From Clostridiales bacterium (GTDB lineage: Bacteria; Bacillota; Clostridia; Christensenellales; Aristaeellaceae): a stretch of 64,000 nucleotides of DNA. Of this stretch, positions 17,275-34,185 are shown one piece after another; position 1 is the first letter of the stretch; every line of letters starts with the position of its first letter. The notes beneath the pieces are model-generated. The model saw only the letters and a list, made by a program, of their open reading frames with translations. It was not told the origin of the DNA and ran no database searches. The DNA is taken from the NCBI GenBank assembly GCA_015056055.1, contig SVHC01000010.1:4385-68384 (forward strand), read 5' to 3'. The position numbers were made by a program, and so were the translations under genes.

Positions 17275-17360
17275 TACTGAAAAGGGCAAACCATTCGAAA
17301 GGATGGGGCGCAAAGCTAAGGGGCCTAAGGCCGCAAGGTTATGGCAGCCCGGCCGCCAAT
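17275..17360 (+). promoter_or_regulatory. c-di-GMP-I (GEMM-I) riboswitch aptamer
   Basis: AAAAGGGCAAACCAUUCGAAAGGAUGGGGCGCAAAGCUAAGGGGCCUAAGGCCGCAAGGUUAUGGCAGCCC. The core GGGCAAACCAUUCGAAAG..UGGG.CGCAAAGC is nearly identical to the Vibrio cholerae Vc2 aptamer as I remember it. The first hairpin is capped by a GAAA tetraloop. The second hairpin carries the 11-nt tetraloop receptor CCUAAG...UAUGG. Confidence 0.85.
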
Positions 17361-17398
17361 ATTTCGATTCTTTCCAATTATAGAGAGGAGAACGAAAT
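17361..17398 (+). promoter_or_regulatory. putative expression platform: hairpin sequestering the adhesin RBS
   Basis: ATTTCGATTCTTTCC (17361-17375) can pair with GAGGAGAACGAAAT (17385-17398), which contains the GAGGAG RBS 2-9 nt before ATG 17400. That gives about 13 pairs with one bulge. Confidence 0.45.
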
Positions 17399-17399
17399 A

Positions 17400-20240
17400 A
17401 TGGCAAACAAGTTTAAGAGAAGCTTCGCAATGGTTCTGGCACTGTGTATGTTGGTACTCGCATCTCCCGTGCATGCTCTGGCCGAAGAGAGCGTTTACCC
17501 GGATGACATTAACGCAGACCTGACTGTTGACCAAACCAATGGTACGATTGAAATCGTTTTCACCCCCGTTGATGGCGCAGAGGGCGGAGATCTGGAATGG
17601 GAATCCGATCTGACCCTGGGCGAAAATATTGAAACCGAACTGAGCGATCTGAGCGTTACTGAGGAAAAAACCGAAGATGGCGACACGATCGTTACCGAAA
17701 GCGCTACCATCGTTACCGAAGGTACGCTGGAGAACGGTGCAGACAGCAATGGTGAGGAAGTTCTTGAAGAGATCACTGACACCGAAGCTGAAGATGCGCA
17801 GCAGAATGGTGAAATAACCATCAATGGCGAGGAAACTCATGTTGAAATCACCACTACCGAAGCCGACGGTACCGTTACTGAAACGGATGTAACCGACGGT
17901 TACGAGAAGATCGAGTGGACCGGCGACGGCATCGAGAACATCGAAGACGTTATCGAAGGTCTTGAAGATCTTGAAGGTCTTGAAAACATTGAGCTTCCCT
18001 CTGTGGAAATCGAACTCAATCCCGGTGAAACTACCGAGCCCGTCACTGAAAAGAGTGAAGTGCCGGTAACCGGTACTGTTGGCGACGAAAAGGAAGGCGA
18101 AGACGACACTGAGTACAACTACACCGATATCACTATCGAAGTAGATCGTACCGTGAGTGCTGAGGCTTCCGATCTGGTAGTAACGCCTCCCAGCGCTACT
18201 AACAACTATGATTCTCCCGTTGATCCTACCACGGATACGGACAAGAACTGGGATACCAGCTCCAAGACTAAGGAAGATCCTCAGCGCAACGGCTTGGAAA
18301 AGCCGGCGCCCGGTTTGGTTGACCTTGAGGATGTTCTCATGTATGAACGCTGGCAGGAAGGCGACGATATTCCTGAAGGATTCCACGTTGGCGACATCAA
18401 GGAAGATGCAAAGGGTAATTACATTATCGCTGATGAGCCTCAGGAGATTCCCGAAGGATATGACTTCTTCCACTCCGGCATGGGTGAATACACCGACGCC
18501 GCAGCTCCTGTGTTTAAGTACATCGTTTACCAGCGCGACGAGAGTGGCGAAATCATTTACGGCGAAGACGGTAAGCCTCTTGTTGATGAGGAAAAATCTT
18601 ACCTGATGAATGGTTCTAATGGCAAAGCTCCCGAAAGCGGTATGGACTATCAGCCCGGTCAGCTCGGTTTGACGAATATCGTTTGCGAGCGCTATACGGA
18701 AGAAGATCTGAAAAACGACCTGATTCCGGAAGGCAAGAATGTCGGTGATATCAAGTATGATGAAAACGGCAAGCCTGTGGTTGATGAGGAACAGACAGAG
18801 CTTTTCTACGCCTACTGCGCCGACTTCCTGGTAGAAACAGACGCAGACGCTATGCACTGGTACAAGATGGAAAACCTGGAAGACAGTGGTCACTACACTG
18901 AGGAAGATGCTCAGAAGCTCCGTGCCATCGTTATGAATGGCTACTGGGGTGATGCAGAAGTAGGTACTGTGGAGCAGATTGTTGCCAATCTGACCGAGTA
19001 TGTCCAGGACATGCCTGAAGCCACTGATGAAGAGAAGGCAGAAATGCTGGACCTTCTGCTTGGTATGAAGGAGCATGAAGCTCTGGCTGTTACCCAGGCT
19101 GCAATTTGGGCTTATTCTGTTAACCGCACTAACACTGCCTATATGGATGGCAAGCTTCCTGCTGGTGTAGATAATGTTGAAGTTATCGGCGCCCAGAGTG
19201 CAATCAAGTGTTATGCGTACGATGCGAAGAAGAACAAGACTTCTTGGTATACTGAGTACAAGGCTGCTGTTGATCAGATGAAGGACGGCGGACTGCCCCT
19301 GAATGGAGCGTACGTTAATCTTTCTGAAGAAGTAATGGCAGAACGAGTAGCGGAAGCTATTGAAAGCGATGCCCGCATGGCTCTGATGTTTGAGTACCTG
19401 ATGAGCCTGGAAGGTATTCCGGACACCGATGAGGACGTAACCACGGTTATCAACGAGAACAATTTCATCGAAGATGACTCCCTGTCTCTGGTAATTCATG
19501 ACCGCGTTGAGGATCATGAAGACAACAAGGACGACAACCACGACAATGACGTTTACGACACCGACCTGAAGTTCAGCCTGGCTTTTGTTCCCGGCGAGAA
19601 AGATGAACTGCTGGTTTATCTGTATGGTATCGGCGATGAACCCATCGTACGCCGCCTCAGCGGTACGGGTAACGATGGTATCGAGGATATCACCACGGAC
19701 ACCGACGCAAACGGCAATACTGTTTACGTATTCAAAGATCTGCAGCTGAGCGAGAACTCCAATACGAAGTTCGACCTCCGTCTGGACGGCGTTCATCACC
19801 TGAATCAGGGCGTTTACCTCTACACTGCTCAGGGCGGTCGCCTTGCCTCCCAGACCTTTGTTGGTATGGCAAGCGGTTCGCAGGATATCGACATCACTGC
19901 GAGCATGACCATTAGCTTCAATGTAGATGAGAACAACCATGTTGTTGCAGAACGTTATTGGCACAACGAATCCGACCCCGAAACCACTCCGCCCACTAAG
20001 GATGAACCCCCGGTTATCTCCGAACTGCCTCCGAGTGAGGACGAGGAAGAGCCCACGCCCCCGGTTCGTTATCGTCTGTCCCGTAACGTAGGTCAGCTGG
20101 AAACCATCATTGATGAGGAAGTTCCGCTGGCTGAAGTTCCTGAGACCGGTGATATCTCCATGGTATGGTTTGCCATGGTACTGGTAGCTGGCATGGGACT
20201 TTGCATGCTGAAACTTGCTGAGAAAAAGTGCAAGGCATAA
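17400..20240 (+). CDS. sortase-anchored surface adhesin with a thioester (TQxA) domain
   Basis: Signal peptide MANKFKRSFAMVLALCMLVLASPVHALA and a very acidic D/E/T-rich N-terminal region. Thioester Cys context FYAYCADF and Gln motif LAVTQAAIWAYS. C-terminal sorting signal EVPETGD, then hydrophobic ISMVWFAMVLVAGMGLCML, then KLAEKKCKA. Confidence 0.85.
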   Translation: MANKFKRSFAMVLALCMLVLASPVHALAEESVYPDDINADLTVDQTNGTIEIVFTPVDGAEGGDLEWESDLTLGENIETELSDLSVTEEKTEDGDTIVTESATIVTEGTLENGADSNGEEVLEEITDTEAEDAQQNGEITINGEETHVEITTTEADGTVTETDVTDGYEKIEWTGDGIENIEDVIEGLEDLEGLENIELPSVEIELNPGETTEPVTEKSEVPVTGTVGDEKEGEDDTEYNYTDITIEVDRTVSAEASDLVVTPPSATNNYDSPVDPTTDTDKNWDTSSKTKEDPQRNGLEKPAPGLVDLEDVLMYERWQEGDDIPEGFHVGDIKEDAKGNYIIADEPQEIPEGYDFFHSGMGEYTDAAAPVFKYIVYQRDESGEIIYGEDGKPLVDEEKSYLMNGSNGKAPESGMDYQPGQLGLTNIVCERYTEEDLKNDLIPEGKNVGDIKYDENGKPVVDEEQTELFYAYCADFLVETDADAMHWYKMENLEDSGHYTEEDAQKLRAIVMNGYWGDAEVGTVEQIVANLTEYVQDMPEATDEEKAEMLDLLLGMKEHEALAVTQAAIWAYSVNRTNTAYMDGKLPAGVDNVEVIGAQSAIKCYAYDAKKNKTSWYTEYKAAVDQMKDGGLPLNGAYVNLSEEVMAERVAEAIESDARMALMFEYLMSLEGIPDTDEDVTTVINENNFIEDDSLSLVIHDRVEDHEDNKDDNHDNDVYDTDLKFSLAFVPGEKDELLVYLYGIGDEPIVRRLSGTGNDGIEDITTDTDANGNTVYVFKDLQLSENSNTKFDLRLDGVHHLNQGVYLYTAQGGRLASQTFVGMASGSQDIDITASMTISFNVDENNHVVAERYWHNESDPETTPPTKDEPPVISELPPSEDEEEPTPPVRYRLSRNVGQLETIIDEEVPLAEVPETGDISMVWFAMVLVAGMGLCMLKLAEKKCKA

Positions 20241-20320: not shown

Positions 20321-20358
20321 AGGGAGCGAAGGAATACCTTCGCCCTCTTTTTTTTTTT
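20321..20358 (+). terminator. rho-independent terminator of the adhesin gene
   Basis: AGGGAGCGAAGG-aatac-CTTCGCCCTCT followed by a run of about 10 T. Confidence 0.8.
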
Positions 20359-20424
20359 GCAAAAGAATGTTATACTATATAACAAGAGAAAGCGCCGGAA
20401 GGCGGAAAAAAGGAGTTGTCAAAA

Positions 20425-21369
20425 TTGAAAAAATTGCTGGCTGCCTTTCTGGCAGTGTGGATGGGCGTAACTGGTTTGGGCTGTGCGCTGTGTGAGGATG
20501 CGTATATTGATTCTGATTGGAGCAGCTATGAGGGGGAGATGATCTCTCAGTCTCGTGCTGCGGTACCGCTGCTGTTGGAAGCTACCGCTCCGGGTGTGTT
20601 GGTGGAAGAAAACGGGAAGGCACTGATCGACTATTCCAATACCGACGATGGATATGTGATGGTGCTGTATAAAGAGGGAACCAGCAAAAAGCTCAAGGTG
20701 CAGATCAAGGGACCTTCCACGACCTATACATATACCATTTATCCCGGTGAGTGGGCAGTGCTGCCGCTGACAGACGGAAACGGAAAGTATCAGGTCAAGG
20801 TGTTCAAGAATGTGTCCGGAAACTCCTATTCCAATGTGCTGGCTGCAAAGACAACGGTGGAACTTACCGATGAATTCGCACCGTTCCTCAGACCCAATCA
20901 GTATGTCAATTACAGCGCTTCCAGCCGTGCTGTGGAACTGGCGATGAATCTGACGCAGGGCATTTACCAGCCGCTGGGCAAAGTAGAAGCGATTTATAAT
21001 TACGTGGTAACGTATCTTTCCTACGATAAGGAAAAGGCCAAGAATGTCAAGAGCGGTTATCTGCCGGTGCTGGATGAGATACTGGAATCCAAGAAGGGCA
21101 TCTGCTTTGACTACGCGGCGCTGATGACGGGTATGCTGCGCAGCCAGGGTGTTCCCTGCAAGATGGTGTTTGGCTATGCGGGAAGTGCATACCATGCCTG
21201 GATTAGCGTGTGGAGCGAGGATACCGGCTGGGTGGATGGCGTAATTTTCTTTGACGGTACCACTTGGCAGCGTCTGGATCCTACTTTTGCTTCCTCCGGT
21301 AATCAGAGCGAATCGATTATGGAGTATATCGGCAACGGTAAGAACTATAAGGAAAAGTATTTCTATTAA
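20425..21369 (+). CDS. secreted transglutaminase-like (Cys-His-Asp core) protein
   Basis: Signal-like KKLLAAFLAVWMGVTGLGCALC. Transglutaminase core KKGICFDYAALMTGMLRSQGVPCKMVFGYAG..YHAWISVW....WQRLDPT. The likely start is TTG 20425, 9 nt after AGGAG; the track start 20416 abuts the RBS. Confidence 0.75.
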   Translation: MKKLLAAFLAVWMGVTGLGCALCEDAYIDSDWSSYEGEMISQSRAAVPLLLEATAPGVLVEENGKALIDYSNTDDGYVMVLYKEGTSKKLKVQIKGPSTTYTYTIYPGEWAVLPLTDGNGKYQVKVFKNVSGNSYSNVLAAKTTVELTDEFAPFLRPNQYVNYSASSRAVELAMNLTQGIYQPLGKVEAIYNYVVTYLSYDKEKAKNVKSGYLPVLDEILESKKGICFDYAALMTGMLRSQGVPCKMVFGYAGSAYHAWISVWSEDTGWVDGVIFFDGTTWQRLDPTFASSGNQSESIMEYIGNGKNYKEKYFY

Positions 21370-21425
21370 GCTGTTCAAAGTACCGAAGAGGATGGACCAT
21401 CCGCGGATGGTTTGTGGATGAAGAT

Positions 21426-22472
21426 ATGAAAGTGCTTGAATTGACAAATTTGGAAAAAGCTGATCTTTTTAAACAGTTGGCGCTGCTGATGCATTCCGGC
21501 GTGACTGCGGGAGATGGACTCAGTCTGTTGGCTGAAGGGGAACCCAACGAAAAAATCCGCGAGATGCTTGTGAAGATGACGGAGAGTGTAGATGCCGGTG
21601 CGTATCTCTCGCAGGCTTTTGAGGAAACCGGAAGTTTTCCTGCCTATGTGACGGGTCTTTTGCAGATGGGAGAGCAGGTGGGACGAAGCGAGGAAACGCT
21701 AACTGCTCTTTCCGACTATTACGAGCAGAAGGAGCGGATGGAGCGGCAGCTGGTCAGTTCTCTGACCTATCCCGCGATTTTGCTGCTTTTGATGGCTGTT
21801 GTGATCATCATTCTGCTCAGCCAGGTGTTGCCGGTGTTCAACGATATTTATGCTTCCTTAGGAGGAAAGCTTACCGGCGTTGCTGGTGGATTGCTGCTGG
21901 CAGGCCAACTTCTGGATAAGGCGATTCCTGTGCTGTGTGGACTGCTGGTGGTAGTTCTGGGCTTTTTTGCGGTGTTCTCTCTGCATAAGGAGTGGAGAAA
22001 GAAGATTCTGGGATTCTTCTCGGCACGCTGGGGAGATAAGGGTATTTTCCGCAAGATGAATAATGCCCGCTTCGCGCAGGCGCTGTCGATGGGATACACC
22101 AGCGGTATGCCGCTGGAGGATGCGGCAGATCTGGCTGCTCTGCTACTCAAAGACATTCCGCCGGTTCAGGAAAGATGCAAAAAATGCAGCGAAATGCTGC
22201 AGCAGGGCGAGGATCTGGCTGTGGCGTTGGAGGCGGCGGAGCTGATGCCTCCGTCTACCTGCAGAATGCTGACTCTGGGTCTGCGCAGCGGAACGGGCGA
22301 CAGCGTGATGGAAGATATCTCCCGCAGGATGCAGGAGGACGCGCATAATGCTTTGGAGAGTATTGTGGCTCGGGTGGAGCCGGCGTTGGTGCTGGTGACC
22401 TCCGTACTGGTGGGCGTGATTCTTCTGTCGGTGATGCTGCCGCTGATGAATATTATGACAGCGATCGGGTGA
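21426..22472 (+). CDS. type II secretion / type IV pilus platform protein (GspF/PilC family)
   Basis: Two T2SSF-like halves (LFKQLALLMHSGVTAGDGLSLL... and FAQALSMGYTSGMPLEDAADL...), each followed by TM segments. The start is ambiguous (GTG 21414 or ATG 21426). Confidence 0.75.
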   Translation: MKVLELTNLEKADLFKQLALLMHSGVTAGDGLSLLAEGEPNEKIREMLVKMTESVDAGAYLSQAFEETGSFPAYVTGLLQMGEQVGRSEETLTALSDYYEQKERMERQLVSSLTYPAILLLLMAVVIIILLSQVLPVFNDIYASLGGKLTGVAGGLLLAGQLLDKAIPVLCGLLVVVLGFFAVFSLHKEWRKKILGFFSARWGDKGIFRKMNNARFAQALSMGYTSGMPLEDAADLAALLLKDIPPVQERCKKCSEMLQQGEDLAVALEAAELMPPSTCRMLTLGLRSGTGDSVMEDISRRMQEDAHNALESIVARVEPALVLVTSVLVGVILLSVMLPLMNIMTAIG

Positions 22473-22476
22473 GAAC

Positions 22477-22791
22477 GTGAAGAAAAAAAGAGGATTGCAG
22501 ACGATTCTTTCCTGCGTAGTTATGCCCGTGCTGGCAATTTTGGTGCTGGTATGCTTTTTAAGCGCGGTTTCCAATCTGACAAGCGGGCGGCAGAGCGAGG
22601 ATATGGACAAGCTGGAAGATGTGCTTCGCCGCGCAGCGGTAGCCTGCTATGCTGCGGAGGGGATCTACCCGCCGGATCTGGAATATCTGCAGGAGCATTA
22701 TGGTGTGCAGATTGACGAAAGGCGCTATGTGGTGGATTACGTGGCGATTGCGGATAATCTGATGCCGGATATCACGATTCTGGAAAAATAA
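22477..22791 (+). CDS. small bitopic pilin-like protein (no Glu+5)
   Basis: GTG start 4 nt after the GspF stop. MKKKRG-LQTILSCVVMPVLAILVLVCFL, then an ~70-aa soluble part. Confidence 0.55.
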   Translation: MKKKRGLQTILSCVVMPVLAILVLVCFLSAVSNLTSGRQSEDMDKLEDVLRRAAVACYAAEGIYPPDLEYLQEHYGVQIDERRYVVDYVAIADNLMPDITILEK

Positions 22792-22815
22792 GAATGGACA
22801 AGCAATGGTGACAGG

Positions 22816-23298
22816 ATGAAAAAGAAAAACCAATTGGGCAGCGTGCTGGTTTTGCTGGTGTTTGCGGTGTTCATGGTCTCGGTTTTAATGGTGCTGCTCA
22901 CCGGTGCGGATGTGGTAGAGAAGATCCATAGCCGCGATCAGGCCAGCTATGACCACAGAACGCTGGTACAATATATCACTACCCGGGTTCGTCAGGCCGA
23001 TCAGCGTGGCATGGTGGATGTGCGCAGCTTTGGCGACGGTGATGCATTGGTGCTTACGGAGGAAATAGACGGAGATTTGTATGAAACTCTGGTCTATTGT
23101 TCCGATGGGTATTTGAGGGAACTGTTTGTGGAAGCGGGTCTGGAAATGGATGCGGAATTTGGCGAGGAGATTCTGCCGATTCAGCGCGTTTGTTTTCAGG
23201 ATGAAAATACCTATATCCGCGTACAGTTGACGCTGACAGAGGGAGAGGAAGAGGAAATGATTCTTTCTCTTCGCAGCGAGAGGGGGACAATGCGATGA
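22816..23298 (+). CDS. small bitopic membrane protein (160 aa), pilus/pseudopilus accessory candidate
   Basis: MKKKNQLG-SVLVLLVFAVFMVSVLMVLL N-terminal anchor. I recall similar clostridial proteins being binned as a DUF family, but this is unverified. Confidence 0.55.
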   Translation: MKKKNQLGSVLVLLVFAVFMVSVLMVLLTGADVVEKIHSRDQASYDHRTLVQYITTRVRQADQRGMVDVRSFGDGDALVLTEEIDGDLYETLVYCSDGYLRELFVEAGLEMDAEFGEEILPIQRVCFQDENTYIRVQLTLTEGEEEEMILSLRSERGTMR

Positions 23299-23693
23299 AG
23301 AGCAAAGCACCTCTTGCGCTGATGGAGCAGCTGGTGATGATTCTGGTGTTCGCACTGGCTGCGGCATTGTGTTTGCAGATTTTTGTGCTTTCGGGCAATC
23401 TTTCCGTGACAAGTGAAACCCGCGACCGGGCAGTAACGGCAGTTCAGAATACAGCAGAAACGCTAAAACTGTGCCGGGGCGATTTGGAAGAGGTTCAGAA
23501 ACTGCTGGGTGGAGAGAAAACCGAAGATTGCTGGCAGATGATTTTGACTGGAAAAGAAACGCTGTGTGTAACGGCAGAACGGATTGCAGACGAAGCTGAA
23601 GCACTGGGCGAGGCCAGAGTGTATGCAGTCAACGATAAAGGCAGCGTGGTTTTTGAAGTGAATGTATGCTGGCAGGAGGAATGGGATGGATAA
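23295..23693 (+). CDS. pseudopilin-like protein with non-canonical leader
   Basis: MKSKAP-LALMEQLVMILVFALAAALCL. LALME aligns with the pilin F-T-L-I-E motif and conserves the Glu, but the residue at -1 is Pro rather than Gly. The ATGA overlaps the upstream stop. Confidence 0.55.
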   Translation: MKSKAPLALMEQLVMILVFALAAALCLQIFVLSGNLSVTSETRDRAVTAVQNTAETLKLCRGDLEEVQKLLGGEKTEDCWQMILTGKETLCVTAERIADEAEALGEARVYAVNDKGSVVFEVNVCWQEEWDG

Positions 23694-24093
23694 GCAGCAG
23701 AAAAAGTTTCAGGCTCCCATGGTGGGAGGAAGCTCCTTGCTGGTGATTTTTGCCATTCTGTGTCTGACGGTTTTTGCTCTCCTGGGGTTTAGTACCGTGC
23801 AGGCAGACCGTAGGCTGGCAGATGCCAGTATTAAGGCCGTAGAAGGGTATTATAAGGCTGATAGCGAGGCAGAAAGGATTCTGGCCGCGATTCGCAGCGG
23901 CGAGGCTCCTGCAGGGGTACAGTGCGATGAAAACGTGTATCGTTACGCCTGTACCGTTTCCGACACTCAGAAGCTCTTGGTAGAGGCACGGGTTGAAAAC
24001 AGGGACGAATGGGAAATTCTGCGCTGGCAGACGGTTTCAACGGCAGAGTGGAATGAAGAAGAGTATATTACTGTGTGGGACGGCGAGAGTTAG
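23686..24093 (+). CDS. small bitopic membrane protein (135 aa), pilus accessory candidate
   Basis: MDKQQKKFQAPMVGG-SSLLVIFAILCLTVFALLGF. AGGAGGA RBS and an 8-nt overlap with the upstream gene. The track start 23662 is an extension. Confidence 0.55.
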   Translation: MDKQQKKFQAPMVGGSSLLVIFAILCLTVFALLGFSTVQADRRLADASIKAVEGYYKADSEAERILAAIRSGEAPAGVQCDENVYRYACTVSDTQKLLVEARVENRDEWEILRWQTVSTAEWNEEEYITVWDGES

Positions 24094-24124
24094 ACAGATT
24101 TGAGAAAAAAGGCAGGCATTGTAT

Positions 24125-25180
24125 ATGGCTGATTTGATGTATTATCTGCAGCAAGCGGTAGAGAAACACGCTTCGGATATTTTTATTGTGGCAGGTGCTC
24201 CGGTGAGCTTCAAGCTGGATGGAAAAGTATGCCATATAAGTGATCAGAAGGTTATGCCGGAGGAAACGCTGGAACTTATTACCGAGATTTACGGAAATGC
24301 CAAACGTTCCATGGACGCATTTCTTCGAAACGGTGATGATGACTTTTCCTTTGCTGTGCCGGGAATGGCGCGCTTCCGTGTAAATGCCTATCGTCAGAGA
24401 GGCTCACTGGCAGTAGTGGTACGCGTAGTGTCTTTCAATATCCCGGACTGGAAAAGCATCCATATACCGGAGAGGATTATGGATTTGGCAAATGCGGGTC
24501 ACGGTATGATTCTTATGACCGGCACTGCGGGCAGCGGAAAGTCTACCACACAGGCATGTATTATCGACCGTATTAACCAAACACGGGATTGCCACATTAT
24601 TACGCTGGAAGATCCTATTGAGTTTTTGCACCGCAACCAACGCAGCATTGTGAGTCAAAGAGAAATCGCGGTGGATACCGCTGACTATCTTTCTGCGCTG
24701 CGTGCCTGTCTGCGTCAGGCACCGGATGTGATTCTTCTGGGCGAAATGCGTGATCCAGAAACAATTCGTACCACCATTACAGCGGCGGAAACCGGTCATC
24801 TGATTATTGCGACGCTGCACACCAAAGGAGCTGTCAATGCCATTGATCGCATTATTGACAGTTTTCCGAGTGAGCATCAGGCGCAGATTCGCATGATGCT
24901 TTCTACGGTATTGCAGACTGTTGTTTCACAGCAAATGCTGCCTGACCAACATGGTGGAATGGTGCCCGCCTTTGAAGTGATGCATGTCAATAGTGCCATT
25001 CGCAGCCTGATTCGCGACAATAAGAGCCATCAGATTAATAATGTGATCGCTGCCGGCGGAAAAGAAGGCATGATCACCATGGATCAGGCTATTCTGGAAT
25101 TGTATAAAAATGGCGCGATTACAAAGGATACAGCCTTGGATTACGCTGATGCGCCGGATATGATGAGGCGTCAACTGTAA
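24125..25180 (+). CDS. pilT: PilT-family (retraction-type) hexameric ATPase
   Basis: Alignable along its length with Pseudomonas PilT as I remember it: ASDIFIVAGAPVSFKLDG, FSFAVPGMARFRVNAY, Walker A GTAGSGKST, ITLEDPIEF, ILLGEMRD, AAETGHLIIATLHT. About 350 aa, lacking the N-terminal extension of PilB/GspE. Confidence 0.85.
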   Translation: MADLMYYLQQAVEKHASDIFIVAGAPVSFKLDGKVCHISDQKVMPEETLELITEIYGNAKRSMDAFLRNGDDDFSFAVPGMARFRVNAYRQRGSLAVVVRVVSFNIPDWKSIHIPERIMDLANAGHGMILMTGTAGSGKSTTQACIIDRINQTRDCHIITLEDPIEFLHRNQRSIVSQREIAVDTADYLSALRACLRQAPDVILLGEMRDPETIRTTITAAETGHLIIATLHTKGAVNAIDRIIDSFPSEHQAQIRMMLSTVLQTVVSQQMLPDQHGGMVPAFEVMHVNSAIRSLIRDNKSHQINNVIAAGGKEGMITMDQAILELYKNGAITKDTALDYADAPDMMRRQL

Positions 25181-25214
25181 AACTATCTTCGGTTTTATGG
25201 GTGTATATGGTAAA

Positions 25215-25254
25215 GGTAGATGCATGGAAAATGGCCATGTATCTGCCTTTTTTT
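25215..25254 (+). terminator. rho-independent terminator of the pilT operon
   Basis: GGTAGATGCATGG-loop-CCATGTATCTGCC (13 pairs including 2 G-U) followed by TTTTTTT. Confidence 0.7.
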
Positions 25255-25701: not shown

Positions 25702-28254
25702 TTAGATGCCGACCTCTGCAGGTGCAGGGGGAGTAGATTTGGTCAGCGAGGGGATACGCAGTTCGATTTTATTGTTTTCCACCAATTCGGCAAAGATTTC
25801 AATAAGGTTGGGGTCGAACTGTTTTCCGGCCTCAGAGCGCAGAATGGACAGAGCCTCATGTACGGGCGTAGCAGATTTGTAATTGCGGATAGAGGTAATA
25901 GCATCGAAGGAATCAGCAATACAGAGGATACGACCGGTGATGGGAATGTTGGTCTGCGCCAAGCGACGAGGATAACCGCGGCCGTCGTAACGCTCGTGGT
26001 GAGAGAGAACGGCGGGAATAACGTAATCCAGTGAGGGAAGATGCCGGATGATGTTGACCGCATTTTCAACATGGCTCTTCATCACTTCGTACTCTTCTGC
26101 AGTAAGCTTGCCGGGCTTATTGAGGATTTCTTCACGGATGCCGATTTTACCGATGTCGTGCAACAAACCGGCTTCGCGGATAATCTCTACCAAATCGGAG
26201 GACATGCCTGCAGCCTTGGCAAGTTCAGCGGCGTAATAGGCCACGTTCTGGGAGTGCTGGAACGTATAATGGTCTTTGGCATCGACCGCTGCGGTAAGAG
26301 CGTAGATGGTACTGGCATGTTCATCGTAACCGCTTTTGTAAAGCGTGTTGCTGGGTTCTCTGCGGTGAATATCGGCGGAGTACATCTGCACGGCATTTTT
26401 ACCGGTGCGCTTGACGGTGTAAACGGTGGTATCGGCATTGCGATAGAGTTCCTTGGCGGAAGAAGCCATGTAGGGAGCAGCGCAGATACCGATGCTGGCC
26501 GTCATGGTACCGGCAGGTTTACTGCCGGCGAAGGAAGACGTGATATTGCTGATTTGTTCAGCTACGTTATCGGCCAGACATTTGGCGGAGTAGATATCAT
26601 AGCCGGGGAGAATCAGGGCAAATTCATCGCCTCCGATACGGGCAGCATAGCCGTTTTCGTTGACGGCAGATGCCAGAATGGCGGCAATACTACGGAGTAC
26701 GGCGTCACCTTCATTGGTACCGTAAAGCTGATTGTACTGCTTGAAATCGTCGATATTGATCAGGCACAGGGAAAGAGCGGTGTCCTTGCACTTTTCAAAT
26801 TCACGATCAAGAATATCGTAGAAGAATTTGAAGTTGAGCAGGCCGGTCATATCGTCCCTCTGCGCTTCTTCCACGGCTCGTTCGTAATTGTAGGCGTTCT
26901 GAACGGCACTGGCACATACGGTAGCAAGAGACTGCAGGAAACGAAGGGTATCGGGATGCTGCGAGAACTTTCCGTGACGATCGGGCAGAATCATGAAGCC
27001 TATCAGGTCACCTTCGTGATTCATAGGGATGAAGCAATCAAGCTGTTGGTTGATCAGAAGGGCTTTTTCCTTTTCCCAGAGGCTGCGATAGAGAGTTCTG
27101 CGGGAAAAGTCCTGGGATGTTACATAGCCATGCTTGTCCTTCAGATATTTGACCAACGGATGGGTGGCATCAAAGGAGAAACTCTTTTCTTCCAGAGGAT
27201 TGAGAGTGTGTTCAATGCGATATGTGCCGCCGGAATCACGGACAAGCACAAAGAGACGGTCTATATCGAAGACTTCCTGTGCTGTGTTGGTCATGCTCTG
27301 CAGGATTTCACTGACACTCATCATGTGAGATAGGTTTTCAGAAAAATGATTGAGAGCGTTGTTGCGCTTCTGATCCTTGCGAGAGAAAATCGCATCGCAC
27401 AGGGAGTTGATGGCCAGATACAGCAGGCCAATCAACAAAAAGAGGAAAACAGCAATGATCATCAGTGTGCTGGTGTAGCCCAAACCAACGTTCTGCATGA
27501 GAAAACGCTGGAGAACCAGAGCCAGATCTGAGAAAATCGCCAGACCGATGACGGCGGAGATGATTATATAATTGGACTTGGAAAGAAGGATGGTCATGCG
27601 GAAAAGCCGTTTCCGGTAAAGTGCGTAGAAAAGGAAAATTGCGTTGCAAACACCGGAGAGCATATCCATAGGAAGACCTATGAACATGGGCAGGGTAGTG
27701 AGCAGATGACCCATGACCAGAACAGCCAGACCACCCATTACAGGCGTCAATTGGCGCAGGGCGATGTGATTTCCGCGGCAATGACGCCAAGCCAGAATAC
27801 ACATTTGCGCCAAAGTAGGCACAATTAAAGCAAAGAGGAAATAAATGTGCCAATTGTAGTGATAGAGGAAGGTGGGAGTATCGCCGGTTCGAATGACTTC
27901 CGGCAGGGGAATAAAGAAATTGGTGAGGCAATTGAATACAAACAGTGCCAGGTAGAAGAACATCCAGAATTTGCGGCCATGGCTATTGGTTTCATCCAGA
28001 AAAGCCAGAACAAACTGATAATAACCATAGGCAACCATCATCATACCCAGAAGGGAAACATGGTGCCAGAAGTTGACATTTGGCCACAATTCAATTCGCA
28101 TGCCCAGCGAGCCGCCGTTCCACAAAAGCATGATGCCCAGAAGCAGTGAGAAGGAACGAAGAGCTTTTTCCTTGGGCTTGGAAACCAAGAAGGTCAGCAG
28201 AAGAAAGAGGTAGCAGAAGATGGAGAAGACGGCAATCCAACTATATCCATTCAT
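25702..28254 (-). CDS. polytopic membrane sensor with GAF-like, GGDEF and HD-GYP domains (c-di-GMP synthesis/degradation)
   Basis: About 300 aa of TM helices, then RIGGDEFALILPG (intact GGDEF), then HD-GYP motifs LLHDIGKIGI and HHERYDGRGYP. Confidence 0.85.
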   Translation of the reverse strand: MNGYSWIAVFSIFCYLFLLLTFLVSKPKEKALRSFSLLLGIMLLWNGGSLGMRIELWPNVNFWHHVSLLGMMMVAYGYYQFVLAFLDETNSHGRKFWMFFYLALFVFNCLTNFFIPLPEVIRTGDTPTFLYHYNWHIYFLFALIVPTLAQMCILAWRHCRGNHIALRQLTPVMGGLAVLVMGHLLTTLPMFIGLPMDMLSGVCNAIFLFYALYRKRLFRMTILLSKSNYIIISAVIGLAIFSDLALVLQRFLMQNVGLGYTSTLMIIAVFLFLLIGLLYLAINSLCDAIFSRKDQKRNNALNHFSENLSHMMSVSEILQSMTNTAQEVFDIDRLFVLVRDSGGTYRIEHTLNPLEEKSFSFDATHPLVKYLKDKHGYVTSQDFSRRTLYRSLWEKEKALLINQQLDCFIPMNHEGDLIGFMILPDRHGKFSQHPDTLRFLQSLATVCASAVQNAYNYERAVEEAQRDDMTGLLNFKFFYDILDREFEKCKDTALSLCLINIDDFKQYNQLYGTNEGDAVLRSIAAILASAVNENGYAARIGGDEFALILPGYDIYSAKCLADNVAEQISNITSSFAGSKPAGTMTASIGICAAPYMASSAKELYRNADTTVYTVKRTGKNAVQMYSADIHRREPSNTLYKSGYDEHASTIYALTAAVDAKDHYTFQHSQNVAYYAAELAKAAGMSSDLVEIIREAGLLHDIGKIGIREEILNKPGKLTAEEYEVMKSHVENAVNIIRHLPSLDYVIPAVLSHHERYDGRGYPRRLAQTNIPITGRILCIADSFDAITSIRNYKSATPVHEALSILRSEAGKQFDPNLIEIFAELVENNKIELRIPSLTKSTPPAPAEVGI

Positions 28255-29881
28255 TCAGCAGTTCCCCCTTTCCGACACTGTCCATCATGTGACAATTGAG
28301 CAAATCGTTGATTTCGCAGCTTTCGGCATTCATGGTACGAATTTTGGATCCGTATTTACGTTCGTAGAGTTCGAAGGTTCCGCACTTGAGCAGTGTGATC
28401 TTCAGCGGATCGATTCCCAGAATCTTCTTAAGATCCTCATAATCCTGATCCAGATAGCGGAAATAGATTCCCAGCTGATCTTGCAGCAGTCTGATACTGA
28501 TGGCGCTGTTGATCAGGTTGCTGCGCTGCAGTTCTACATACATGTGCAGATACGGTCTGTTCTGCTCGGTATATTCCTTTTTGGCTGTCCAAGAGGCAAT
28601 GGGAAGCCTGGACAGCTGAATCGCTTGTGTGATGGATTTTTCTGTGATGCGGGTAAATCCGGCGATATCAATAATCTGCGGAACGCGATCCACATACTGG
28701 AAGCGGGGAATGGAATTGCCCTCGCTCTCGCTTCCGATACCGGTACAGCGGAATACATCGCCTACGCGATAGCGGGCGAAGGCGCCGCCCTTAAATACGG
28801 TCAGTACGAGTTCATAAATACCGCCGGGGAGAACTTCATTCCAGAGAATGGTATGGGGCTGATAGTTGGGGTCGGCCAAGCTTCTGTCCAACTCATCTTC
28901 GGGAATAAATTCATAGAAGCAGGCGTCAGGGAAGAAATAGACACCTTCGCGGCTCCAGGTTTCGCAACCGATACATGTGGGTTCGGTGCCGGCAAAAATC
29001 TCCATGGGGGTAATGCCCCACATCTTTTCAAGATCGGCTTTGTAGCATCGATTGTCTGTGCCGGCGTACATGAAACATTTGAGATGGAAAAGGTCCTTGG
29101 GCAGCAGATCACGATTTTCTCTGCGGCATTTTTTCTTGGCCATAAGATAACGCAAGATCATTTTGGGGGAGGTGCCCAACAGCTTGTCTTTGAGACTGTG
29201 TCCGCCGGAACTCATGCTTGAAATGCTCTGACTGACATAATAAAGGACACTGCCCAGGCCAAAGAAGTATTCAAGACCTTTCTTCATGCCTAGTTTGAAA
29301 CCCTGCTTGTTGCGCTCTCTAAAGCTCATTTTTACCGCTTCTTTAACCGGCGGGAAAAACTCAATATCGATTTCATCTTCCAAAAGCAGGGGCAGAAGAC
29401 CGGTAACATAGGGCATCGGTGCCAGCGCATAAAGCATGTGGTCGGTTACACTGATGTCGAAATCACCCTTTTGACGACTGGTAGCCAGAATCAAGCAGCT
29501 GATGACATTGTGTTTGAACGTATCCAACATCGCCTTGGTATAAGGGGCTGTCTTGATGGGGTGGACGCCACCTTCCCATGTAGTCTGCACCCAAAGAACG
29601 GGATCGGCAGGCAGTGAGGAGGTCTGCTTGGAAAGCAACATGGGCGCGTAATCCTCATAAGAGGTCAGCGGCACCATTTCGCGGAATTCATTGATGGTAT
29701 GGGGGTATTTGCCTTTGAGAATGCTCTGACCGATTCCGCTGTTGGACCACAGTTCGATTTGTTCAAGCAGCAGTCGGTTCTGAATGCTCATGAATTCTTC
29801 GGAGGACAGCGTCAAAAAACCGCAGTATTCTTCCCAGATTTCTGCTTTGGTATATTCGTGAAGCTTTTCCTGGAATCTCAT
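28241..29881 (-). CDS. GH3-family-like (acyl-acid amido synthetase / adenylate-forming) protein
   Basis: Motif 3-like ARYRVGDVFRCTG (compare plant GH3 YRLGDVV). Motif 2-like IFAGTEPTCIGCE (compare YGSSE). The position of the P-loop-like SSGTT motif is degenerate (VQTTWEGGVHPIK). Size is 546 aa. The assignment rests on recollection of family motifs. Confidence 0.5.
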   Translation of the reverse strand: MRFQEKLHEYTKAEIWEEYCGFLTLSSEEFMSIQNRLLLEQIELWSNSGIGQSILKGKYPHTINEFREMVPLTSYEDYAPMLLSKQTSSLPADPVLWVQTTWEGGVHPIKTAPYTKAMLDTFKHNVISCLILATSRQKGDFDISVTDHMLYALAPMPYVTGLLPLLLEDEIDIEFFPPVKEAVKMSFRERNKQGFKLGMKKGLEYFFGLGSVLYYVSQSISSMSSGGHSLKDKLLGTSPKMILRYLMAKKKCRRENRDLLPKDLFHLKCFMYAGTDNRCYKADLEKMWGITPMEIFAGTEPTCIGCETWSREGVYFFPDACFYEFIPEDELDRSLADPNYQPHTILWNEVLPGGIYELVLTVFKGGAFARYRVGDVFRCTGIGSESEGNSIPRFQYVDRVPQIIDIAGFTRITEKSITQAIQLSRLPIASWTAKKEYTEQNRPYLHMYVELQRSNLINSAISIRLLQDQLGIYFRYLDQDYEDLKKILGIDPLKITLLKCGTFELYERKYGSKIRTMNAESCEINDLLNCHMMDSVGKGELLNEWI

Positions 29882-30496: not shown

Positions 30497-32824
30497 TTAC
30501 TTTTTGTTTTCCGCCATAGATTCCATGCTGGGATCATAGAAAATGAACTGAGCACGGCCTTGTTCCTTGGCCACATAGGCAGCCGTATCGGCATGATCCA
30601 ACAAATCTTCGTAGGTATCGCCATCATCGGGATAAACGGCGGCACCGATGCTGCCGGACAAGGGATAATCGATGGTATCTGTGCGGTAGGGGGTCTGCAG
30701 CACATTGCAGAGTTCTTCCAGACGCTTTGTCAAATCAGCACGTTCCAGACCGCTGACGAAGACTACGAATTCGTCGCCTGCATAGCGGGCAACCACATCG
30801 ATGTGACGGAAGGTACCCAGAAGACGCTTGGCAATGAAGCACAGCACGTCGTCGCCGACCATATGTCCCAGAGTATCGTTGACCTGCTTAAAGTGATCCA
30901 GGTCAAAGAAGATGATGGCGCTGCCGGTTTGTGCACCCTTTTTGAGGGCGCTGCTGACGAATTGCTCAAAGTAAGTACGGTTGTAAAGACCTGTCAGCGG
31001 GTCGCGATTGGCTTTTTCCATCCAACGGTTGACCTCATTTTTCCAACCGGCCATGTTTACCAACGTACCGGAAATTATGTCTTCACCGCCGGAAGCGATA
31101 TGTTCGCAATGCATATGAACTTCCATCCACTCGTAGCGGGACTCGTTGGTATAAAAGCGCAGAGTATTCTCAGCCCAGCCTTCGTTTTTGCAGCAACGGT
31201 CCATAAGATTACGGAAATCCTGGCGGTCATTTTCATGAATCAGATCGGAATGAGCAAAGAGTGCGGAGGCTTCGGAAATAACCAGCTGACCGTAAAGAAG
31301 GGGAGAAAAAATATCAGAGAAGACTACGCGATCCTGGCTGACCAGGAAAGTGAACATGATAATGTTGCTTCCGGTGGGATGGGGAGCAATGTCGTTGGTT
31401 TGAATGGTGGGGGTATCGTTGGTTTCCACATATTTCAATTGCCCGTTTTCAAAGGCAGTCTTCTGGAATTCATCGACGGGCATGGGACGGAAGTAGTAAA
31501 AACCCTGAATCATATCGCAACCGGATTGACGCAGATACTGAACCTGGGAGGCAATATCGATTCCTTCGGCAACGGTATGAATCTGCAGCTGAGAGGTGAT
31601 TTTTAGAATCGCTTCTACGATATAGCGGTTGGCGCGGCTATTGTTTTCGCCGATAAAGAAGCTGCGATCCAATTTAAGTGTGTCAATGCTCAGTTCACGA
31701 AGGAGCTGCAGGGGAATAGCACTCTCGCCAAAGTGATCCAGAGAACATTTGAAACCGTAAGAATGAATTTCATCGACCAGGGCGCGCAGCCTTTGCGGCT
31801 TTTCAAAAAGAATGGGTTCGCTCAGTTCAAATTCCAGATATTCCGGTGCGACGCGATACTTCTGAGCAATACGGTTATAGGGCTCCAGAAAGTGGTCATG
31901 TTCCAGTGTTTCCAGAGACAGATTGACGGAAATCGGGCAGGGGCTCATGCCCAACTGCTTCCACTGTGCCATTTTGCTGCAAACTACTTCGAAAAGATAT
32001 TGATCAAAGCGGTGAATAAGTCTGTATTCCTCCAGAAGCGGAACAAACATTTCAGGAGTAAGCAGACCGCGCTGCGGATGACGCCAGCGAACCAACGCTT
32101 CTGCGCCTACGATACGACCGTCGCCCAGGCGAACCTTGGGCTGCATATAGACAAGAAAATCACCGTTAGCCAAGGAACGATCCATCTGTTCAATCAGTTC
32201 CCAACGGTGGATGGCTTTTTCATCGGTAGGGTTGTTGTGATAAAAACGGAAACGGGGCGCATTTTTTTCCATGTCCAACATCTGCAGCGCTTTTTCCTGC
32301 ATATCGCTGAAAGGCTCGGAAGTGGTAGAGGGAAGATAAGCGCCGAAAATCAGATCCATATGATAGGGAATTTTACGCTGAATATTAAATTGATTGATGC
32401 TTTCATAAATTCGCAGCAGGCGGGCACGGATAGCATCTTCCTGACGATTTTTAATCAGAAAACACAATGTACCGCCACTCAGTCGAGCCGCGGCTTCAGA
32501 GGAACTCAGCGAAGTACGCAGAATACGGGCGATATAGAACAGAACCTGGTCGCTTTTTGCGCTGCCAAAGGTGTGGACAATCTGCCGCCAGTTTTTCAGC
32601 TCCATGACTACAACGGCATGGTGAGGTGTGTTGCTGCTGAAATATTGCAAAGCAACACGCCTTAATCCCTCACTATTCAGAAGACCGGTTACAGAATCGG
32701 AAAGGGCGCGGGATTGCAACCGCTTGATGCGGCGGATATATATCAGCATAACAATGACTGTCAGCACAAACAGGACTGACAGGGCGAAAACCCACTGAGA
32801 AGGAGTAAAAAGAGGGCTATTCAC
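30497..32824 (-). CDS. membrane-anchored degenerate-GGDEF / EAL / PAS-like / GGDEF(AGDEF) protein
   Basis: N-terminal TM WVFALSVLFVLTVIVMLIYI. The first cyclase-like domain has RLSGGTLCFLI in place of GGDEF. EAL domain: GAEALVRW..., LDHFGES. C-terminal RYAGDEFVVFV. Confidence 0.8.
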   Translation of the reverse strand: MNSPLFTPSQWVFALSVLFVLTVIVMLIYIRRIKRLQSRALSDSVTGLLNSEGLRRVALQYFSSNTPHHAVVVMELKNWRQIVHTFGSAKSDQVLFYIARILRTSLSSSEAAARLSGGTLCFLIKNRQEDAIRARLLRIYESINQFNIQRKIPYHMDLIFGAYLPSTTSEPFSDMQEKALQMLDMEKNAPRFRFYHNNPTDEKAIHRWELIEQMDRSLANGDFLVYMQPKVRLGDGRIVGAEALVRWRHPQRGLLTPEMFVPLLEEYRLIHRFDQYLFEVVCSKMAQWKQLGMSPCPISVNLSLETLEHDHFLEPYNRIAQKYRVAPEYLEFELSEPILFEKPQRLRALVDEIHSYGFKCSLDHFGESAIPLQLLRELSIDTLKLDRSFFIGENNSRANRYIVEAILKITSQLQIHTVAEGIDIASQVQYLRQSGCDMIQGFYYFRPMPVDEFQKTAFENGQLKYVETNDTPTIQTNDIAPHPTGSNIIMFTFLVSQDRVVFSDIFSPLLYGQLVISEASALFAHSDLIHENDRQDFRNLMDRCCKNEGWAENTLRFYTNESRYEWMEVHMHCEHIASGGEDIISGTLVNMAGWKNEVNRWMEKANRDPLTGLYNRTYFEQFVSSALKKGAQTGSAIIFFDLDHFKQVNDTLGHMVGDDVLCFIAKRLLGTFRHIDVVARYAGDEFVVFVSGLERADLTKRLEELCNVLQTPYRTDTIDYPLSGSIGAAVYPDDGDTYEDLLDHADTAAYVAKEQGRAQFIFYDPSMESMAENKK

Positions 32825-33084
32825 TGTATTTTTTCCTCACATATTGTAGGCGTTTATGGCATGAAAAGCAGCAAATTTATGAATCTAAATTTGAAGATAC
32901 TAAATTTATTTTATTATATCACGAATTTATTGCTACTTCAACATGAATGGACGATATTTTGTTCAATAATTTTGATGTTTTCTGTTGTGTTTTTAAGGGA
33001 CAGAATGTATAATGCATATAGTGTTTCAAAAGATTTTAGGTTGTGATTGGAACCTTAATTAAAAAACAATTGGGGAGGAGTTCG

Positions 33085-34185
33085 ATGAGAAAGATTTTGA
33101 AGGTTGTTTTGCTGCTGACGCTGGTAGTCGGTTTGGTCTTCGGTGGCAAAAGTTTGTTGGATGATGTAAGCAGCGGACGGGATAATGACATGGCCAGAGA
33201 ATTGGCGCGAGGCGGCAGGACAACGGCAGCGCCTACTGAAGCTCCCACTGAAGCTCCTACGGCAGCGCCCACCGAAGCTCCTACGGCAGCTCCCACTGAA
33301 GCTCCTACGGCAGCGCCCACCGAAGCCCCTACGGCAGCGCCCACCGAAGCTCCTACGGCAGCGCCCACTGAAGCTCCTACGGCAGCGCCCACCGAAGCCC
33401 CTACGGCTGCGCCCACCGAAGCTCCCACGGCAGCGCCCACTGAAGCTCCTACGGCTGCGCCCACCGAAGCTCCCACGGCAGCGCCCACTGAAGCTCCTAC
33501 GCCTGTGCCTACGGTTAAACCCACCGAGGTTCCCACACCTGCGGCAACGCAGAAGACAAGAGCAGATCTTACGCATAGTGACCCGATAGTCATGGAACTT
33601 CTTGCTATGGATCTGGATGTGCTTAGGGAATACAATCCGGAAGTTGTTGGTTGGGTATTCATTCCCGATACGGCGATTGACTATCCCATGGTACAGGGTG
33701 CTGATAACGACTTCTATTTGAATCACACATGGATGAAGGATGAAAACAACGCAGGTGCGATTTTCATGGAAGCGGAAAATTCCCTGGATATGAGCGATTT
33801 CAATACCATTATTTACGGTCACAACATGAGAAATGGAGCCATGTTCAGTGATCTGAACAAGTATCAGAGTCGCAGCTATATGGCCGATCATCCTTATGCA
33901 TATGTGCTTACTGACAATGGCGTCTATCGCTATGATCTGTATGCTACTTACAAGGCAGGCGTGCGTTCCATCACCTATGCCATGAAGATTCAGACTGAAA
34001 AGAAGAGGATGGAACTGATCAATTTCATTGACAACTATTCGCAGGTCACTATGGATATAGCCCCCGGTGTCGACGATCATATCCTGACGCTGTCGACTTG
34101 TTCCGGTGTAGGTCAGCCCAATCGCCGCGTGGTTATTGGAATTTTCAATGCGGAAGGATCCTGTCTAATTAATCCCTTGGAATAA
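33085..34185 (+). CDS. srtB: class B sortase with N-terminal TM anchor and long APTEAPTA repeat stalk
   Basis: MRKILKVVLLLTLVVGLVFGG anchor, then a 92-aa repeat stalk. Catalytic domain: PDTAIDYPMVQGADNDFYLNH, IIYGHNMRNGAMFSDL, LTLSTCS...RRVV. GGGGAGGAG RBS. Confidence 0.8.
   Translation: MRKILKVVLLLTLVVGLVFGGKSLLDDVSSGRDNDMARELARGGRTTAAPTEAPTEAPTAAPTEAPTAAPTEAPTAAPTEAPTAAPTEAPTAAPTEAPTAAPTEAPTAAPTEAPTAAPTEAPTAAPTEAPTAAPTEAPTPVPTVKPTEVPTPAATQKTRADLTHSDPIVMELLAMDLDVLREYNPEVVGWVFIPDTAIDYPMVQGADNDFYLNHTWMKDENNAGAIFMEAENSLDMSDFNTIIYGHNMRNGAMFSDLNKYQSRSYMADHPYAYVLTDNGVYRYDLYATYKAGVRSITYAMKIQTEKKRMELINFIDNYSQVTMDIAPGVDDHILTLSTCSGVGQPNRRVVIGIFNAEGSCLINPLE
33226..33501 (+). repeat. 11.5 tandem copies of a 24-bp unit (GCAGCGCCCACCGAAGCTCCTACG-like) encoding (AAPTEAPT)n
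   Basis: Read directly from the sequence. The copies differ only at a few synonymous positions. Confidence 0.9.

Follow-up and report, generated by a model that had tools for sequence, protein, structure and literature searches.

In the primary type IV pilus (T4P) cluster of Clostridioides difficile, the genes are ordered pilA1-pilB1-pilC1-pilMN-pilO-pilV-pilU-pilK-pilT-pilD. A set of seven genes located at positions 20425-25180 (+) of a 64-kb stretch of Clostridiales DNA (contig SVHC01000010.1; hereafter the window) recalls such type IVa pili of Clostridia, with which it shares monoderm hosts, a PilC-type platform gene followed by small genes for bitopic or pilin-like proteins and by a terminal pilT, and riboswitches for cyclic di-GMP (c-di-GMP) nearby. 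However, pilA, pilB, pilD and pilM/N/O are missing from this cassette, its pilin-like proteins are devoid of the class III signal, it adds a transglutaminase-like first gene, and its platform is of ComGB size and falls below the curated PilC cutoffs. Reviews of type IV filaments (T4F) count a platform, an extension ATPase and a prepilin peptidase, besides pilins with the class III signal, as the four universal parts (PMC6668835, PMC10191384). Only the platform is recognizable in the cassette, where the extension motor is swapped for a PilT-clade ATPase and the cleavage-site glycine is replaced. The explanation that we put first, with a confidence just short of even, is that the cassette constitutes an autonomous, peptidase-independent minimal T4F machine of monoderm Clostridia with a PilT-clade motor. 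More guardedly, it may represent an unrecognized T4F subtype, in which neither a PilB-type ATPase nor a prepilin peptidase would be needed and the PilT-clade ATPase would drive a short filament or piston of uncleaved subunits (Pro at -1, Glu at +5) alongside a surface enzyme of the transglutaminase fold.

The comGA-GG operon of Com systems is likewise made of seven genes in monoderm hosts, with a short ATPase lacking the GSPII domain, a platform of ~340 amino acids (aa) and pilin-like proteins of ~100-160 aa, including one without Glu5. The Com peptidase, too, is encoded away from the comG operon. In contrast, the ATPase of the cassette is of the PilT clade and encoded last instead of first, its platform lies below the ComGB cutoff, the transglutaminase-like gene is extra, and neither canonical G/FTLxE prepilins nor nearby DNA-uptake genes are found. 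The Tad system differs by a motor of the TadA/CpaF clade and by pilins processed by TadV, and the MSHA pilus of Vibrio cholerae by a dedicated extension ATPase, MshE, which is still present there. No PilT-only class exists in the classification of the superfamily by Denise et al. (PMC6668835). As far as the searched literature shows, the cassette appears uncharacterized: no description of it was found in publications on PilT, type IV pili, transglutaminase, Clostridia and gut commensals, DUF4860 (the Pfam family of one of its proteins) is mentioned in no paper of that literature, and Roseburia, Oscillibacter and Butyrivibrio are not among the organisms listed in the supplements of Imam et al. 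2011.

The cassette was compared across species by scanning an alignment of DUF4860 against one genome per GTDB species, which yielded 62 loci, each examined to ±10 kb. Locus content was called by phmmer, using the window proteins against all open reading frames (ORFs) of each locus, and 48 loci had enough room for the whole core to be informative.

Motor, platform and pilin-like proteins

The ATPase, encoded at 24125-25180 (+), is a bona fide PilT-clade protein. This 351-aa protein without N-terminal GSPII domain scored 417.7 bits against the PilT/PilU family model TIGR01420 (cutoff 319), covering model positions 4-341 of 343, compared with 125.7 for ComGA (cutoff 300), 105.5 for PilB (cutoff 676) and 123 for GspE (cutoff 630, core only). 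An earlier note, made from the bare sequence, had claimed that it aligns end to end with PilT; indeed, among solved structures it is matched best by Aquifex PilT, along the full length and with 324 bits, followed by other PilTs and by PilU (254 bits), while PilB, GspE and PilF reach ~80 bits over the core only. The Walker A, Asp box, Walker B and His box motifs (GTAGSGKST, EDPIE, VILLGEMRD and TGHLIIATLHT) are conserved to at least 80-95% in 58 species, and the AIRNLIRE-like motif, AIRSLIRD in the window, is partly conserved with the pattern A..xxIR.xK. The platform (21426-22472 (+), 348 aa, with an alternative GTG start at 21414) was correctly recognized from the start as GspF/PilC-type: it carries the T2SSF domain PF00482 twice (E 1e-44) and is kept in all loci. 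It spans the ComGB model over its whole length (2-331 of 332) and is of the same size, but falls below every curated equivalog cutoff, with 173 against 424 for GspF, 123 against 240 for ComGB and 123 against 700 for PilC. Membership in the Com pilus class was rejected on the ComGA and ComGB scores and on the lack of a canonical prepilin, and membership in the type II secretion systems on the GspF and GspE scores, the host being monoderm. The SpoIIIA sporulation channel, which combines a T2SSE-like ATPase with a GspF-like protein, was also rejected as an identity, the cassette having a full-length PilT-family ATPase and a platform with two T2SSF domains.

Between platform and ATPase, the four small N-terminally anchored proteins that had been proposed are all present, each made of a basic N-terminus followed by a hydrophobic helix. 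One of them is p132 (23295-23693 (+)), whose leader MKSKAP precedes LALME and which had been singled out as the best pilin candidate. Its family profile aligns to the alpha1N helix of solved type IV pilins, with Leu7 on mature residue 1 and Glu11 on Glu5. These matches are weak but specific: PilA of Myxococcus xanthus (8tj2, E 0.08), PilA5 of Thermus (8qqj, E 0.13) and geopilin (9egp, E 0.2). The N-terminal consensus of 37 species is M-[KR]-x-[KR]-x-P / L-x-L-M-E-Q-x-V-M-x-L-V-F-A-L-A-A-A with an invariant Glu11. Among 146 representatives of 50%-identity clusters, the leader has exactly six residues in 137, and position -1 is occupied by Pro in 115, Ser in 12, Thr in 5, Phe in 4 and Gly in none. 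Judged on these residues, the signal of p132 looks type IVa-like, except that other residues have systematically taken the place of the glycine at the cleavage site. Strom and Lory are said to have established with PilD substrates that Gly-1 is needed for cleavage. Since position -1 is Pro, Ser, Thr or Phe and never Gly, p132 would be used without cleavage by a prepilin peptidase. Pfam scans of p132 family members gave no match.

The protein of family DUF4860, p160 (22816-23298 (+)), matched PF16152 with an E-value of 4e-25 (88 bits, gathering score 25). AlphaFold models of this protein and of p104 (22477-22791 (+)), the smallest of the four, were built with deep alignments, and both fold as pilin lollipops, as had been suggested for checking. 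The DUF4860 model (predicted local distance difference test score, pLDDT, 87.1) comprises a helix at 3-62 and an eight-stranded sheet, that is, the classical lollipop; p104 (pLDDT 74.8) is a minimal version in which two strands accompany a helix at 4-61 and a short helix. In Foldseek searches, the only full-length neighbours of DUF4860 with high probability were the pseudopilin XcpW/GspJ (5bw0_A, probability 0.98, template modelling scores 0.50/0.52) and the Thermus type IV-like pilin 5g24 (0.97), and no match was obtained at E < 0.001. The predicted fold thus resembles that of a GspJ-type minor pseudopilin; weak hidden Markov model matches were also seen to ComGG (E 0.029) and TadF (E 0.08). 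For p104, the only sensible neighbour was the Shewanella type IV pilin 4d40 (probability 0.57). This protein, whose GTG start is backed by conserved upstream residues in its homologues, has a basic N-terminus, a transmembrane helix and the invariant motif C-Y-A-x-E-G-x-Y-P-P...Y-G. The last protein, p143 (p143/p135, 23686-24093 (+)), starts with ...P-x-V-G-G-S-S-L-L-V-I-F-A-V-L-C-L-T and keeps Gly14 and Trp114 invariant in 36 species. PilX_N was the most frequent Pfam match among its members, albeit a weak one (4 of 36, best E 0.059), and its N-terminus resembles those of PilX/GspK-type caps. Searches of the p104 and p143 profiles against the sequences of the Protein Data Bank returned noise only. 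By profile-profile comparison, the four families are weakly linked via their N-terminal helices with probabilities of 52-84%, the helix of p143 being related to that of DUF4860 at 52% (hhalign).

The three proteins other than p132 had been described as having a Gly before the hydrophobic helix and no Glu at +5. The absence of Glu5 holds for all three, and the Gly is conserved across species in p143 but neither in p104 nor in DUF4860. A complete class III signal (leader, Gly-1, alpha1N and Glu5) is therefore carried by none of the four small proteins. More broadly, and as had been claimed for the window, the canonical motif G-[FILMV]-[ST]-L-x-E followed by a hydrophobic stretch was found in no ORF of the window or of the 62 loci.

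This composition is reminiscent of the minor-pilin quartets GspH-I-J-K and FimU-PilV-W-X that initiate assembly in other systems, one member of which lacks Glu5 (PMC10191384). As in these quartets, four small pilin-fold proteins are encoded in a row, DUF4860 being nearest to XcpW/GspJ and p143 being PilX_N-like. Unlike the cassette, which shows none of these features, the known quartets carry Gly-1 in all four members, are cut by the peptidase and prime a major pilin polymerized by PilB or GspE. The four proteins might map onto an H/I/J/K-type initiation quartet, with p143 as the Glu5-less cap, DUF4860 as a GspJ-like subunit and p132 as the Glu5-bearing subunit. A quite different explanation, which we hold to be unlikely, is that of a membrane complex unrelated to filaments, in which the PilT-like ATPase and the platform would energize another envelope process, such as the export or positioning of sortase-anchored adhesins or the remodelling of the wall by the transglutaminase-like enzyme, the small bitopic proteins forming a static scaffold like PilN/PilO or GspL/M. 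It would fit with the lack of Glu5 in three of the four proteins and of the full class III signal in all, with the fact that machines other than pili have recruited PilT-like ATPases (after PilT/PilU, the ATPase matches DotB and TraJ best in NCBIfam), and with the frequent sortase, adhesin and c-di-GMP neighbours described below. However, the modelled folds are pilin-like lollipops whose best neighbours are pilins and pseudopilins instead of PilN/PilO, p132 keeps the pilin alpha1N, an invariant Glu5 and a leader of type IVa length, and most loci have neither adhesin nor sortase neighbours. A PilN/PilO-like identity of the small proteins was, for its part, unsupported by the AlphaFold models and their structural neighbours. 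Among the features that define the T4F superfamily (PMC6668835, PMC10191384), the platform and the lollipop fold are present, and no extension ATPase, A24 peptidase or class III pilin was found in the window or within ±10 kb of the 62 loci. Through its platform, its PilT and a pilin fold with Glu5, the cassette clearly derives from T4F systems.

A conserved cassette and its transglutaminase-like enzyme

The core, in the order platform-p104-DUF4860-p132-p143-PilT, was found in 43 of the 48 informative loci, always in the same order and on a single strand. The 62 loci belong to Oscillospiraceae (Oscillibacter valericigenes, Dysosmobacter), Lachnospiraceae (Acetatifactor, Roseburia, Pseudobutyrivibrio), Acutalibacter, Christensenellaceae and Peptococcaceae, and the conserved order spans Oscillospiraceae, Lachnospiraceae, Acutalibacter and Peptococcaceae. 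Such a recurrent gene order is far beyond chance, and the set is a conserved cassette of abundant gut and rumen Clostridia. Its flanks vary: the core directly follows rplJ-rplL in L010 and L011, and adhesin genes in the window, L012 and L014. Because the flanks differ while the order of the core stays fixed, the cassette behaves as a unit, inherited as such across at least 60 species. The transglutaminase-like gene stands immediately upstream of the core, as the first gene, in 43 of the 48 loci and is placed elsewhere in two; counted over all loci, L016, L017 and L054 have it on the opposite strand, downstream. The set combines genes for a polytopic platform, a PilT-clade ATPase, four pilin-like proteins that are paralogous to each other and a membrane-tethered enzyme with an intact catalytic triad. 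A search of PLSDB for carriage on plasmids gave no DUF4860 match.

A decaying remnant of a T4P operon, devoid of current function, would account for the degenerate class III signals, and also for the state of the cassette in Roseburia inulinivorans DSM 16841 (L073), whose platform gene is split into two ORFs (8529-9556 and 9556-9881) and whose p104 homologue was not detected. The split reflects either decay of the cassette in this type strain or errors of an old draft assembly; the locus of an uncultured Roseburia (L072) is intact. We consider this explanation very improbable, as all seven proteins are under clear purifying selection across families of Clostridia, with PilT 52-77% identical, catalytic motifs invariant and the order fixed in 43 of 48 loci, and as the families are large (1896 homologous clusters at 90% identity for p104, and 1279 representatives of 50%-identity clusters at E <= 0.001 for p132). 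The families p104, p132 and p143 are without any Pfam model, and two of them are called "hypothetical" by the Prokaryotic Genome Annotation Pipeline (PGAP).

The enzyme (20425-21369 (+), 314 aa) most likely starts at the TTG codon at 20425, 9 nt after AGGAG. It had been described as a secreted transglutaminase-core protein. The domain assignment stands, with a match to Transglut_core (PF01841) at E 2e-22 (79.8 bits, cutoff 23), but the protein is mostly a lipoprotein or otherwise tethered to the membrane instead of being freely secreted. In 52 species, conservation of its triad motifs GICFDYA (Cys), YHAWI (His) and DPT (Asp) reaches 95% or more. Of the 52 homologues, 30 contain a lipobox-like L-x-[GAS]-C by regular expression match; the protein of the window, which reads TGLGC, gave no match, several other homologues have a visible lipobox variant (IFCSCG in L072), and a few have a signal anchor. 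Given the conserved triad and the lipobox or signal anchor of its homologues, the protein appears to be an active enzyme on the outer face of the membrane. Its nearest relative of solved structure is the transglutaminase domain of TgpA (6g49, E 4e-5). In L048 (6920-8584 (+)), the homologue is 554 aa long and ends with a candidate SPETG-type tail resembling a sorting signal, flagged by regular expression; if real, this tail would mean wall anchoring in place of a lipid anchor.

The leader peptidase of T4F cuts on the cytoplasmic face of the membrane (PMC10191384). Its location outside the membrane disqualifies the transglutaminase-like enzyme as the missing leader peptidase. A comparable association is known in archaea, where T4P loci are linked to surface peptidases belonging to the transglutaminase family (arCOG02164, arCOG09555 and arCOG03450) whose role is unexplained (PMC4858521). 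In both cases, the genes of a T4P-like machine are linked, in a conserved manner, to that of an extracytoplasmic enzyme of the transglutaminase fold (PMC4858521). The archaeal loci differ by their hosts, by an ATPase of FlaI/PilB type and by class III pilins cut by archaeal peptidases, and the likeness is one of enzyme fold family and gene linkage.

Filament machine or accessory module

As stated in the earlier note, no extension ATPase and no prepilin peptidase accompany the cassette. The PilT-clade protein is the sole T2SSE ATPase in the window and within ±10 kb of 61 of the 62 loci; in the remaining one, L061, the additional T2SSE gene is PilT-like and not PilB. A search for GxGD.K membrane proteins came up empty in the window and in the 62 loci, one unsupported regular expression match aside. 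This prepilin-peptidase candidate, located in L070 (6906-7607) with a GIGDIKL motif, was rejected in the absence of any Pfam match. Clustering of all flanking proteins of the loci revealed no recurrent T4P family, and none of A24 type, and the remaining genes of the window are unrelated to pili. The second ATPase gene of L061 (5804-6871 (-)), which scores 266 bits to the PilT of the window, is convergent with and abuts the pilT of the cassette; the same locus also lacks the transglutaminase-like gene and a recognizable p132.

Two alternatives had been raised in the earlier note, namely that the missing parts lie elsewhere in the genome or that the operon is a reduced machine driven by a PilT-like motor. 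The data lean toward the second, because the cassette has a platform of its own, contains in p132 a presumably uncleavable pilin with Glu5 and moves as a unit. In such an autonomous machine, a PilT-like hexamer would dock on the platform and serve as the sole motor for assembly, disassembly or both. The product might be a short pseudopilus or stub made of the four pilin-like proteins, uncleaved or mostly uncleaved, and moved relative to the membrane, p132 at least being used without cleavage of its leader by a prepilin peptidase. On the wall side, the enzyme could cut or re-link peptide or isopeptide bonds, whether for passage through the peptidoglycan, in the pilin-like proteins or in wall-anchored adhesins; alternatively, it may be the non-pilin partner carried by the stub or quartet. 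Precedents exist for a motor acting in both directions, since the Tad pilus retracts in Caulobacter without a PilT orthologue, one motor doing both jobs (PMC6668835), and for a contribution of PilT to extension, as the MSHA pilus of V. cholerae cannot be extended without it (PMC9815625).

Several observations weigh against this autonomous machine. There is no evident candidate for a major pilin that would combine Glu5 with high abundance, and PilB, PilD and a major pilin may sit elsewhere in the carrier genomes, the search having covered the window and the ±10 kb loci. The invariant Gly of p143 lies at the cleavage position of GspK/PilX-type proteins, so that a prepilin peptidase could be used after all. 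Every match to pilins by Foldseek or by profile searches of the Protein Data Bank is weak (E > 0.01). The transglutaminase-like gene is absent in three loci, and in L056 (a metagenome-assembled genome (MAG) of Lachnospiraceae, 6331-6977) the cassette stops after p143 without an adjacent pilT, a gene for an unrelated membrane protein following on the opposite strand. In addition, a surface-adhesion context is seen in only about a fifth of the loci. Finally, we know of no filament that has been demonstrated to rely on a PilT-clade ATPase as its only assembly motor.

The first alternative is the main rival, which we rate as somewhat less likely. The cassette would then be an accessory module of a dispersed canonical T4P or Com-like system, whose PilB, prepilin peptidase and major pilin are encoded elsewhere; it would supply four alternative minor pilins to prime or cap the filament, a paralogous platform, an ATPase for retraction and an enzyme of the tip or wall. 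In its favour, the genes of prepilin peptidases frequently lie apart from the rest, like comC in Bacillus subtilis. PilT is by homology a retraction motor, T4P are stated to be ubiquitous in clostridia, p143 has an invariant Gly where PilD would cut, and four small pilin-like proteins, one of them without Glu5, correspond to the make-up of a minor-pilin initiation complex (PMC10191384). Nevertheless, minor pilins that share PilD with a major pilin keep Gly-1, which is found in 0 of 146 p132 representatives and is not conserved in p104 or DUF4860. Canonical systems serve PilB and PilT by one platform, which leaves a second, dedicated platform unexplained, and a canonical T4P gene is linked to the cassette in 0 of the 62 loci.

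If the cassette is autonomous, a "retraction" ATPase can be a sole motor and cleavage of the leader is not obligatory, so that two supposedly universal features of T4F would be dispensable, and the cassette would offer a minimal system for studying the coupling between motor and pilin. If it depends on genes located elsewhere, it would still be a new and widespread accessory module, with its own platform, a PilT, atypical minor pilins and an enzyme, and would bring three Pfam-less families (p104, p132 and p143) plus one DUF. In addition, the transglutaminase-fold lipoprotein may bear on how pili of monoderm bacteria cope with a thick cell wall, the archaeal link being similar (PMC4858521).

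Transcription unit and genomic surroundings

In the window, the seven genes form one transcription unit with an intrinsic terminator at either end. This follows from the strong terminator of the upstream gene at 20326-20343 (+), a 7-bp GC-rich stem followed by a T-run that ends the adhesin gene, and from the strong terminator after the ATPase gene at 25212-25250 (+), with a 16-bp stem plus T-run, which forms the 3' end of the unit. The former marks the 5' boundary of the transcription unit. A possible extended -10 promoter element, TGtTATACT, lies at 20368-20376 (+), within the 72-nt gap that precedes the first gene; it is proposed from the letters of this stretch, and a consensus promoter scan listed no full -35/-10 pair at these positions. 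The tight coupling proposed for the operon was recovered, with genes that are 4 nt apart at 22472/22477 and that overlap by ATGA at 23295-23298 and by 8 nt at 23686-23693. The product names given by PGAP, taken from a rumen or gut MAG of Clostridiales, are type II secretion system F family protein, DUF4860 domain-containing protein, two hypothetical proteins and PilT/PilU family type 4a pilus ATPase.

Directly upstream of the cassette, the gene at 17400-20240 (+) codes for a 946-aa adhesin whose acidic N-terminus is rich in repeats and which carries a thioester (TED/TQXA) domain and the wall-sorting signal VPETG. It is immediately preceded by a c-di-GMP-I riboswitch (RF01051, 17275-17360 (+), 73 bits). 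Direct control of the cassette of the window by this riboswitch was rejected, since the riboswitch precedes the adhesin gene and a terminator separates the latter from the cassette. Pairs of riboswitch and adhesin are found near the cassette in L012, L014 (two), L020 and L031, and no riboswitch stands in front of the cassette in L010. In 13 loci, sortase genes lie close to the cassette, often immediately behind pilT, and sortase-substrate-like proteins occur in 11 of 65 loci.

Downstream of the cassette, the window carries a block of four genes, which is also found after the cassette in L010-L013: a 7TM-GAF-GGDEF-HD-GYP protein (25702-28254 (-)), a GH3-family protein similar to acyl-adenylate/amido synthetases (28241-29881 (-)), a GGDEF-EAL-GGDEF protein (30497-32824 (-)) and a sortase with a PT-repeat linker (33043-34185 (+)). 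The start of the first of these genes overlaps the end of the GH3-family gene by 14 nt. Enzymes of c-di-GMP turnover are thus encoded downstream on the opposite strand in the lineage of the window. Taken together, the neighbours in part of the loci, namely xPxTG adhesins under c-di-GMP riboswitches, sortases and, in the lineage of the window, c-di-GMP enzymes, suggest a surface role in adhesion or biofilm formation, this association being partial. A further probable adhesin of the window, encoded at 58124-62098 (+), is a 1324-aa surface protein with leucine-rich repeats of BspA type (LRR_5, E 1e-153).

The most frequent neighbour of the cassette, in 21 loci, is a SARP-type regulator of ~400 aa with Trans_reg_C and BTAD domains (e.g., L020:5180-6370 (-) and L031:6128-7327 (-)). 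Its gene is usually divergent and just upstream of the transglutaminase-like gene, and is absent from the window. This regulator could be a dedicated activator of the cassette. In 12 loci, a ~150-aa protein without Pfam match is encoded that carries the motif FRQNASWQG...FRS..EL (e.g., L045:12673-13134 (+) and L031:12560-13045 (+)); its gene lies 3' of pilT on the same strand in many loci, and L072 has two copies upstream.

Two long antisense ORFs lie opposite the adhesin gene (17325-19964 (-), 879 aa) and the transglutaminase-like gene (20419-21447 (-), 342 aa), with low-complexity translations and no support of their own. They are almost certainly shadow ORFs of a coding strand that is strongly skewed in favour of G over C, the GC skew amounting to 0.19-0.26 across 20-26 kb.

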